Below the pieces are notes generated by a model. The model did not search any database and was not told the origin of the DNA. It saw nothing but the letters and a program-made list of their open reading frames with translations. A stretch of DNA of 64,000 nt from Eledone cirrhosa (Eukaryota), in NCBI GenBank assembly GCA_964016885.1, contig OZ024750.1, forward strand, positions 13,206,001 through 13,270,000, written 5' to 3'. Below, one piece after another: positions 19,201 to 57,595 of this stretch (the stretch's first letter is position 1; the number at the start of each line of letters is the position of its first letter). The position numbers were made by a program, and so were the translations under genes.

Positions 19201-22200
19201 GATGTAACCAGAGATTAGGGGACAAAAGTGTATCAGTTCTACCAAAGATTAGGGGAAAAAAGAATCAGTTTTACCAAAGATTAGGGGGCAAAATTATATC
19301 TATCAGTTCTATTTAGAGTTAAACAGAGAAATATACAAATCATGAAATGAATGAAATACCAACATTTCTATTAGATTGTCAAATAGAACTTCAAAGGTAA
19401 TACCAACATTTGTATTAAATTATCATGTGGAACTTCAAAGGTTTCAATGTTTTATCATGTTATTTATTTTATAATTTGCAAAAGAAAATAATTCAGAGAA
19501 TAACAACTTACGGAGAAATACTCCTTCGGACACCAAACATTGGTGTTTCTGGAGGTGTGGTTGTAACAGGTTGTGGACCACTACCTAAAAAGGCAACATT
19601 TTAATGTAAGACAATAATTGAACATTAACTACAGAAAATAATTAAACACATAAAGTAAATAAATATATAACCTGCATTATTATTGGTTAAATAATTACAT
19701 AAAATTAATTGATGTGATGAAGTAACTTTAAGTCAATATAATATTAGTTTTGGATTTAGGCAGAAGACCAACAATTTTGGTGAAGGGGAAAGTTGATTAA
19801 ATCAGTCCCAGTGCATTATCATCATCATCATCATCATCGTTTAACGTCCATCTTCCACGCTTGCATGGGTTTGGACGGGAGTTTTCCCACTTGAGGCAAG
19901 ATTGGTTGTCCTGCTCGTATAGGACTGTCTGGTGGGTTTTCTACAGCTGGATGCCCTTCCTAACACCAACCACGTTTACAGTGTGGACTGGGAGGTTTTT
20001 ACCGTGTTACCTACACGGCCACATTACAGCATGTACTGTGTGTTTTTTTGTCACACAGTCCACGCTGTAATGTGGCCGTGTAGGTAACATGGTAAAAACC
20101 TCCCAGTCTACTGGTACTTAATTTTATTAACCCCCGTATCAATATAATATTGATATTTGAAATCTTTTAATAAACAAACATGGAGTTAGGGATGATGAAA
20201 TTGAATTATAATAAATTACCTATAATATTTAATCTAGCTCGTGTAAGAGCAGATCCAGCAACATTGACAGCAGAACACTGGAACCAAGCTGAGTCAGCCA
20301 GTGTTGCTTTTTGAATAGTCAATGTAGAACGGCCATTTTCAGTGACGATACTGTAAATTCAAAAACAAAACAATATTTTACAAATTTGAATACAACACTT
20401 TCAAACTATTAAAAATTTAGTAGCTGCCTTTCAGTAAAATTAATCATAATTCACGACTTTGGATATATAATACGAAATATATTATTAAGTTTCGTGTTTG
20501 CCATAATTTATTCATTACTATGTTTTTAATGAAATACACTGCCTATGAGTTTTGAAATAACCAAACATTTGGAAGAATTTTTAAAATTATGATATAAGGA
20601 TAAACATTTTCAAATAAGCTGTGTTGAAACACTTTCTATTCAAAAATTGAAAAAGATATAAAAAATAAAAATATTTACTTGTAATCTTTTGAGGAAAGCA
20701 TTTTAGCATCCTTTTGCCAACTCATCATTGGCAATGGACAACCAACTGCAGTGCAAGTCAAAATGACAGATTTATTTTCCTTGGCATTATAATTCTGTAG
20801 GCGTTCAACAAAATGTGGTGGATGCATTTCTTGTCTTTCTGTAATTTCAAAAAACATCATAAAATGTTTTGAGATCTTATATAGAAGAAAATAAGTTATT
20901 TCTTATAGAAAATATAAAAAACAGAAAATACAGACAACTATATATTTTGCACTGAAAAATGTATACAGCTATTTCTATACAAAATACAAAACCAAAATGA
21001 TCATAAAAACAACCATAACATATCTCTAGTAAACAGTAATAAATTCTAACATTCCAATAGGCCTTCAAATTTTAAAACAAGTTTTGTCAGTACAAGTTGT
21101 AATTGAAGAGTCTAACTAAAATCTATGATTCAAGAGATAAGATAGATATAGTTAATAGTTGGGTAACAACTGAGAGTGAGTACAGGTAGTAGCTGGGAAT
21201 TTAATACTGTGAAAGACTGGCATCCTATCCAGGGAGAGTCTTGTACTCTCAGTTGCTTAACACCAGACTTTGGTTGCTTAACAACAAACTTCTGTATCAA
21301 AAGAGGTTCATGAACTCATCAATGGAGTATTTAACAGTAATCTATCGCCTTTTCTACCTTCACATATACCATGTATATACAATAACCCATGGCCTTTTCC
21401 ACCTTCACATGTATATAACTGATTGTATAAACAATGTTTTTAAAGCACATTAAATGTTCAAGTTCCAGTAACTTACCCATAACATTTAATGTTACGAAGA
21501 ACACATCTTCACCACCTTTGTTTCGGGCAACACATCTATATTGTCCTTGATCTTGTCTTGTGGTAGAAAGAATAATTAAGGAATGTACTCCATTTTCATT
21601 CACAACCACCTGAAATAATGAGGAATTTATAAATTACAATCAAAAGATAAAAGAATAGGTTTCATTAGAATAAGTAAGAAAATGATATTCTGATTAAAGA
21701 AATCAATTCTAATTTAAATGTTATTTGAGAATAATTTTTAAGGTGATAGGTTTAAATATACAAATTATGTAATCAGGAAATAATTAAAATAAATTAAAAT
21801 AGTAATTTCACAAATGCCATAAACAATTCTTTTAGGAACTAAGAGAGATATTTAAGTTTAACAAAAACAACTTACCTTATGGTAGTCATCACTACGCATT
21901 TCTATTTCATTTTTATACCAATTAATTTCAGGATAAGGTCGTCCAGATACTAAACAATCAAACCTTACAGTTTGACCTTCACGGGCTTCTTGATTCTCTG
22001 GTACAACTTGGAATACAGGCTTTGAAGCTTTTTCAAAAACTCCTCCGCCACCAGCACGCTGACTAACTTTATCTTGATCTCTGTCAAAGAAAATAAAAAT
22101 TATAATTTTATTTTAAAATGATGAATGTTTTGTTGACTTACAGAGAAGTATTATTTCTTCCTGTGATTATTCTAATCTAATTCAGAATCGAGAGAGAGAG

Positions 22201-57595: not shown

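Follow-up and report, generated by a model that had tools for sequence, protein, structure and literature searches.

A stretch of 64,000 nucleotides from the genome of Eledone cirrhosa (3.0 Gb; assembly GCA_964016885.1, contig OZ024750.1, positions 13206001–13270000), referred to here as the window, very probably carries the 5′ portion of a giant muscle gene of the titin/sallimus type, in which a CCDC141/Zormin-like region of spectrin-type repeats (exons 1–20) is joined in frame by splicing to a series of exons encoding 13 immunoglobulin (Ig) domains. All coordinates are numbered from the first letter of the window, and those beyond its ends are given as window-equivalent positions.

The chain lies on the minus strand between 57595 and 20220 and consists of 44 exons with a total length of 8,446 nt (2,815 codons) without a single stop, separated by 43 introns, all of the GT..AG type. 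It was assembled from stop-to-stop frames by an intron-by-intron search for frame-keeping GT/AG pairs, scored both by their consensus and by the fit of the junction peptides to 11 related proteins. The stop-to-stop frames of this strand (57595–20206) present the helical repeats first and the Ig domains next, with exons 1–20 comprising the spectrin-type repeats and exons 21–44 the 13 I-set domains. A first-pass annotation, made from the letters alone, had counted 44 phase-compatible, stop-free exons running into 13 Ig domains, and the splice-site search combined with Pfam led to the same count. The chain from 57595 to 20220 that it had proposed is retained, but the gene is not confined to that range, as it continues below 20220. 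Nor does the coding sequence begin with the exon at 57595, which starts at an acceptor immediately after an in-frame stop. One additional frame, 41562–41723, was ruled out as an exon, as it is skipped by every guide protein and no splice pair fits it. In the helical region, 17 of the 19 introns are in phase 0, and the Ig region is characterized by a mixture of phases 0, 1, and 2.

Splicing of the chain is recorded in X4, a public run whose kind is not recorded (88 million letters, containing 0.34 of the sampled words), which was found to be spliced when mapped. The comparison covers positions 20001–40000 and was made with contigs rather than reads. All six CT..AC joints shown coincide with predicted introns 38–43, where the depth of the DNA run X1 is 0. 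The eight X4 pieces shown agree with exons 44, 43, 42, 36, 34, 31, 29, and 23 to within 0–4 nt, and pieces are found at exon 23 (34211–34507), at exon 34 (26683–27119), and at 25246–25627 within exons 35–38. Four coordinate checkpoints in record 9 (4,116 nt, depth 295.6) fit exons 29–44 exactly, and this contig reaches 200 nt below 20217, whereas in record 10 (4,706 nt, depth 157.1) exon 23 occupies contig positions 686–982. Exon-length arithmetic places the end of record 10 at 31379 and that of record 9 at 31377, both within exon 28, so that only base 31378 is uncovered.

The depth of X4 was also predicted in 30 bins from the exon model and the depths of the two contigs. Prediction and observation differ by no more than 6% in 13 bins and by no more than 13% in another two, the matching pairs including 65.1/65.1 (the region of exons 28–30), 142.3/142.3, 114.8/114.8, 70.0/70.7, and 71.1/71.7. 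The bins over helical exons 18–22 fit the depth of record 10, and no bin falls more than 2% under its prediction. The other 15 bins exceed it by at least 24% (four by 24–43% and 11 by at least 88%, nine of the latter at least 20-fold), an excess that may reflect intronic repeats.

The sequence of the helical head supports its assignment to the CCDC141 type rather than to the SESTD1 type. Exon 4 (47241–46997, minus strand) covers the C-terminal two thirds of a DUF7799 repeat of the CCDC141 type (PF25075), with E values of 7.8e-15 and 4.3e-15 in two Pfam searches, and exons 11–12 (42059–41118, minus strand) contain a Spectrin_7 repeat (PF25101, E values of 8.3e-10 and 2.3e-07). Three other helical exons yield weak Spectrin matches at the level of single exons, and Ig1 follows in frame after exon 20, behind the Spectrin_7 and the other spectrin repeats. 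In close relatives, the stretch corresponding to exons 3–4 scores 64–71 bits against DUF7799 versus 23–29 bits (22.8 and 28.7) against Spectrin_SESTD1 (PF24915), and the latter family was not matched at E ≤ 0.01 by any of the six window exons searched. For P0034, a relative limited to the helical part, the top named Atlas cluster is a chordate cluster called CCDC141 (0.95), which carries both DUF7799 (PF25075 in 34% of its members) and Spectrin_7. Exon 4 also has a weak paralogue 40 Mb away on the plus strand of the same contig (contig positions 53326807–53326950; 40% identity, E 2.7e-4), for which no Pfam match was obtained at E ≤ 0.01.

On the side of the Ig chain, a clear match to human titin is found in Ig8, which is encoded by exon 33 (27927–27640, minus strand) and is likely, judged by sequence comparison, to be the counterpart of the human titin domain Z2, placed here at the eighth Ig position. 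The two domains align without gaps with 86.5 bits and ~47 of 93 residues identical (~50%), compared with 45.5 bits for Z1 and 23.0–44.3 bits for I65–I70, and Ig8 is 59–76% identical to its equivalents in five lophotrochozoan models. The preceding domain, Ig7, is a candidate counterpart of Z1; the C-terminal 65 residues, the only part compared, score 34.3 bits against Z1 and 36.0 bits against Z2, versus 10.0–30.1 bits against I65–I70. The totals against the titin Z1Z2 chain are 133.7 bits for Ig8, 105.6 for Ig2, and 93.5 for Ig9, and, for partial domains, 75.8 for the C-terminal part of Ig7 and 59.5 for a part of Ig1. Ig2 was considered as an alternative counterpart of Z1 and rejected, as its similarity is non-specific (56.9 bits against Z1 and 50.7 against I68).

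The same arrangement is seen in gene models of other animals. Exon 4 is 93% identical to protein P0001 of Octopus bimaculoides; its identity to 11 further proteins, among them sequences of gastropods and chitons that NCBI names CCDC141-like, is 64–83%. When the CCDC141-like part of P0001 was compared with proteins of 1,988–5,000 aa, 18 of the 19 long proteins matching this head were found to contain I-set domains. The matches include the 'titin' models of Mytilus and Lingula, models of Pinctada, Haliotis, Aplysia, Owenia, Tubulanus, and amphioxus, and arthropod models of the titin/sls type, so that public models joining these parts exist for a mussel, an oyster, an abalone, a brachiopod, an annelid, a nemertean, amphioxus, and insects. 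Because such colinear joined models occur in many taxa, the fused architecture can be regarded as widespread in public annotation. Six models were mapped by tblastn onto 264 kb around the window; those of Pinctada, Mytilus, and Lingula are colinear with it starting at exon 1 or 2 and reaching exon 44, and those of Haliotis, Owenia, and amphioxus down to exons 32–33. A second model of O. bimaculoides (P0035) extends from helical exon 7 to Ig3. The lophotrochozoan and amphioxus models (including C3Z0E4 of Branchiostoma) are thus colinear with the window exon by exon and share with it either a start exon or a SESTD1-like head; the models of Mytilus, Lingula, Pinctada, Haliotis, Aplysia, Owenia, Tubulanus, and Branchiostoma differ from the window locus in coming from other species. 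The N-terminus of Pomacea 'isoform X3' resembles 57483–57650 (minus strand) read in another frame, and the start of this model is probably an annotation artefact.

Two proposals of the first-pass annotation are supported by these comparisons. The helical part is probably CCDC141-like and not SESTD1-like, as DUF7799 outscores Spectrin_SESTD1 and a separate SESTD1-like unit lies upstream, and it runs into titin-like Ig domains, the Z2-like Ig8 among them, as seen in both the spliced contigs and the colinear orthologues. A third proposal, that a Zormin-like short isoform could end at 34211 by read-through of the donor (GKE*), was rejected as unsupported. The stop does follow after three codons, but 10 of the 44 donors reach a stop within four codons of read-through (median 14), the AATAAA or ATTAAA hexamer nearest to 34211 is 528 nt away, and short NCBI models of molluscs end after Ig4–Ig5 instead.

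The CCDC141/Zormin-like region as a whole (exons 1–20, 57595–35948, minus strand) comprises ~1,070 codons. In the exon model, exons 1–5 are located at 57595–57473, 48582–48388, 47849–47741, 47241–46997, and 46550–46431; exons 6–10 at 45803–45612, 44658–44461, 43727–43614, 43392–43270, and 42726–42535; exons 11–15 at 42059–41889, 41297–41118, 40850–40722, 40013–39825, and 39204–39028; and exons 16–20 at 38528–38400, 37964–37842, 37416–37225, 36904–36721, and 36066–35948, all on the minus strand. Within the 8.9-kb first intron, the segment 54001–56000 shows a strong strand asymmetry (GC skew of −0.36) and long CT-rich frames of low complexity. The window is AT-rich throughout, with a G+C content of 24–37% in 2-kb steps.

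Below 35212, I-set was detected in 19 of 22 frames by exon-level Pfam searches, and these assemble into the 13 Ig domains; the remaining three match no Pfam family, exons 34 and 38 being proline-rich linkers and exon 31 a unique linker. Continuing on the minus strand, exons 21–22 (35787–34894) encode a linker and Ig1 (I-set 1.4e-17), with 66–75% identity to mollusc CCDC141-like models. The whole of Ig2 is contained in a single exon, exon 23 (34507–34211, I-set 2.3e-24), while Ig3 is divided into I-set halves between exons 24 and 25 (33362–32795). Exons 26–27 (32548–31863) encode Ig4, and exons 28–30 (31439–29552) encode Ig5 and Ig6, again of the I-set family. The unique linker is followed by Ig7 in exons 31–32 (28963–28156, I-set 7e-18). 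After Ig8, the translation of exon 34 (27119–26683) is a proline-rich linker, exons 35–38 (26012–24388) encode Ig9, a proline-rich linker, Ig10, and a linker (I-set 4.7e-31), and exons 39–44 (24201–20220) encode Ig11, Ig12, and Ig13, also I-set.

Two positions of this region are of separate interest. At 32492, in exon 26 (Ig4), X4 has C and the DNA run X1 only T, which corresponds to A>G in the mRNA and changes CAG to CGG (Q to R). The contig break at 31378 in exon 28 falls on an A of the mRNA, the third base of a GTA (Val) codon. Both could reflect A-to-I editing or polymorphism; the RNA and the DNA are from different samples. The intronic segments 30673–31339, 33341–34007, 36009–36675, and 38010–39343 are repeats with depths of 10^4 to 10^6 in DNA and RNA runs, and the presence of a common motif of 16 residues in their translations suggests a very abundant short interspersed element.

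Beyond the upper end of the window, a conserved start exon is located on the minus strand at window-equivalent positions 66179–66051, ~2.2 kb past that end. The models of Mytilus, Pinctada, and Aplysia begin with this exon, and the same is true of P0003, which was predicted from a Logan-assembled contig of 1,427 nt and probably belongs to a related species (80–93% identity over conserved exons). Farther away, 17–30 kb past the upper end, SESTD1-like exons occupy 94402–80972 on the same minus strand (Spectrin_SESTD1 1.5e-18), placing the helical region between a SESTD1-type unit and the titin-like exons, all on one strand. The donors of both the start exon and the last SESTD1-like exon, which ends near 80972, are in phase 0 and thus compatible with the acceptor at 57595, and the SESTD1-like and CCDC141-like parts are joined in five models (O. 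bimaculoides, Haliotis, Owenia, Babylonia, and Tubulanus). The locus probably possesses alternative 5′ ends, as KALRN does, with transcripts beginning either at the start exon ~2.2 kb upstream or in the SESTD1-like exons 17–30 kb upstream. If its role resembles that of Zormin and mouse CCDC141, the helical head would connect the Z-disc end of an elastic filament with other cytoskeletal partners.

At the other end, a motif scan and tblastn with the Pinctada and Mytilus models trace the continuation of the gene on the minus strand from 18452 to 13689. Three short exons (18452–18327, 17450–17388, and 13829–13689) have the motif YE(I/L)Q..G.VQQI.YA.E in common, which matches no Pfam family and occurs twice per model in Pinctada and Mytilus, and a proline-rich exon (14190–14654) leads into another Ig. 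Farther downstream, the minus strand carries more Ig exons, then giant frames, and then further Ig exons. The giant frames, of 1,118, 1,498, 2,361, and 4,726 codons, are rich in E, V, T, I, and K (P+E+V+K 42–47%), a composition like that of a PEVK extensible region; these exons lie outside the window, for example at −19 to −33 kb, and each ends in an Ig domain, without a change of strand. At −171 to −286 kb, the same strand contains 89 frames with FN3 motifs, of which all six sampled were confirmed as Pfam fn3. Near −319 kb, a kinase (Pkinase 9.9e-19) is split over four exons, and a few additional Ig exons follow it. The ~90 single-domain FN3 exons, the kinase, and the Ig exons resemble an A-band-like array of the titin/twitchin type adjoining the I-band-like part. 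The solved kinases nearest to the kinase exon that was tested are MYLK4, DAPK, and twitchin, the scores being 80.4 bits for MYLK4, 74.8 for Aplysia twitchin, and 54.1 for the human titin kinase. On this one exon, an assignment of the kinase as the twitchin orthologue is not favoured, as Aplysia twitchin scores below MYLK4. Transcripts of the locus would extend across the giant E/V/K-rich exons, perhaps as far as the FN3 array and the kinase.

The idea of a connected ancestral gene is already in print. Hanashima et al. (2025; PMC12198301) propose 'connectitin', a single ancestral SESTD1-CCDC141-TTN gene with TRIO/KALRN as its ancestral paralogue, which is connected in cnidarians and placozoans and has CG15822-Zormin-Sls as its counterpart in flies. 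They also cite human transcripts spanning CCDC141 and TTN, and conclude that the gene 'diversified into three genes in bilaterians'; molluscs are left without comment in this conclusion, although Octopus sinensis is included in their trees. Zormin is identified as the orthologue of CCDC141 elsewhere (PMC12657953). No statement on the connectedness of these parts in molluscs was found in the accessible text of the literature searched (PMC12198301, PMC12657953, and 10.1101/2024.09.30.615857). The locus is likely to retain the ancestral fused state, as the first-pass annotation had proposed, which fits the account in PMC12198301; the polarity of a fission in vertebrates rests on the cnidarian and placozoan data reported there. 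The moderate novelty claimed for the proposal has, however, to be lowered, because the idea had been published (PMC12198301) and fused models named 'titin' were already public.

Comparison with related systems reveals both common features and differences. Drosophila sls, with its Zormin and kettin isoforms, resembles the window locus in being one gene with a spectrin-repeat N-terminus (Zormin; PMC12198301 and PMC12657953), a chain of Ig domains, and PEVK-like giant exons, and titin-like/sls models of Drosophila pseudoobscura match the CCDC141-like head of O. bimaculoides at E 6e-20. Unlike sls, the cephalopod locus is followed on its own strand by an FN3 array and a kinase, and one of its Ig domains is ~50% identical to human Z2; in flies, projectin, which represents the A-band part, is encoded by a gene of its own (10.1101/2024.09.30.615857). 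The human SESTD1-CCDC141-TTN cluster agrees with the locus in order, orientation, and domains, with Sec14 and SESTD1-type spectrin repeats followed by CCDC141-type spectrin repeats with Ig, and then by titin. The human cluster, however, is divided into three genes, with a single Ig in CCDC141, whereas the window locus has its parts spliced to one another and carries six Ig domains ahead of the Z1Z2-like pair. TRIO and KALRN also combine Sec14 and spectrin repeats with subsequent Ig, FN3, and kinase domains and have internal promoters, but the helical repeats of the window are of the DUF7799/Spectrin_7 type.

Several observations weigh against a single gene of this composition. Exons between 57595 and 40000 lie outside the span to which RNA was mapped, no single contig spans 31378, and contigs cannot prove that both ends belong to one molecule. 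Record 10 is known from one piece, and its extension into the helical exons is derived from exon lengths and from the depths of the bins. The models that NCBI gives for Pomacea and Liolophura stop after Ig4–Ig5, for which reason short forms may be real, and the Mytilus 'titin' model (P0019) passes from the last helical exons to Ig3, with no colinear Ig1 and Ig2 (34211–35787), an alignment consistent with the view that the Ig1–Ig2 exons may be cassette exons. The CCDC141 label was obtained via families and clusters; a word-based search with the Liolophura CCDC141-like protein as the query returned 15 proteins, none of them from vertebrates. Exon 4 taken alone places SESTD1-like (0.95) and Kalirin-like (0.93) clusters first in Atlas, with CCDC141 sixth (0.89). 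This ranking and the weak Spectrin_SESTD1 matches on the stretch of exons 3–4 speak for a head of the SESTD1 or TRIO/KALRN type, yet such a type is very improbable in view of the much higher DUF7799 scores of that stretch, the presence upstream of a distinct SESTD1-like unit (Spectrin_SESTD1 2.8e-47 in P0001), the CCDC141-like names given by NCBI to the orthologues, and the agreement with the human order of SESTD1-like, helical, and titin-like parts (PMC12198301, in the part available). It is also improbable, if somewhat less so, that two genes are present, a CCDC141-like gene with ~4–6 Ig domains and a titin-like gene starting near Ig7, with their continuity due to rare read-through or to contig assembly. 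Human CCDC141 and TTN are separate and joint transcripts of them have nevertheless been reported (available parts of PMC12198301 and PMC12657953), the short NCBI models end after Ig4–Ig5, and the mean depths of the two X4 contigs differ (157 versus 296). Against this stand the meeting of the contigs one base apart within one exon, and not at a gene end, the length of only 588 nt of the intron before exon 31, the absence of a stop from every exon of the chain, and the colinearity of six independent models through this region; the contig depths, being means over whole contigs, cannot rank parts of a gene.

The joining of the CCDC141/Zormin-like head to the Ig chain is the preferred reading. We can put forward, as a tentative possibility, that the whole of 'connectitin' is one working locus of ~450 kb, with SESTD1-like, CCDC141-like, and I-band titin parts, an A-band-type FN3/Ig array, a kinase, and terminal Ig domains colinear on a single strand, and with alternative promoters as in KALRN. 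Rather unlikely, in our view, is a separate, mid-sized gene of the Zormin/kettin type, with ~4,000–4,500 codons, whose end would lie a few kb beyond the lower boundary of the window; the PEVK-like, FN3, and kinase parts would then belong to another titin-like gene. Such a gene would be in accord with the Lingula 'titin' (4,184 aa), which aligns to its last residues ~7 kb below the start of the window, with the two titins of mixed features that lophotrochozoans have according to the accessible part of a preprint (10.1101/2024.09.30.615857), and with gaps of 16–33 kb between modules that contain no large frames. The Lingula model, however, is located on a 130-kb contig and is possibly truncated, the Ig exons pass without a change of strand into the giant exons, each of which ends in an Ig, and the model search covered proteins of up to 5,000 aa. 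Even if this alternative were right, the join between the CCDC141-like part and the Z2-like domain would stay intact.

The locus is a real but largely anticipated case of a connected gene; with the core idea and fused models already public, the gain consists of confirmation and detail rather than of a new concept. As an RNA-supported case from a protostome, the window shows cleanly how a head of the CCDC141 type is spliced to Ig domains of the titin type, and the location of the likely Z2 counterpart at the eighth Ig suggests the site of the break between CCDC141 and TTN in vertebrates. The wider locus, with its SESTD1-like exons upstream and its PEVK-like exons, FN3 array, and kinase downstream, bears on a question that PMC12198301 leaves open, namely whether the separate I-band and A-band titins of flies and worms are ancestral or derived. 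If the whole connectitin indeed forms one locus here, the last bilaterian ancestor would have had a single connected gene, the three-gene split of vertebrates would represent a later loss with its break between Ig6 and the pair Z1Z2, and the split between sallimus and projectin in ecdysozoans would also be a later loss.

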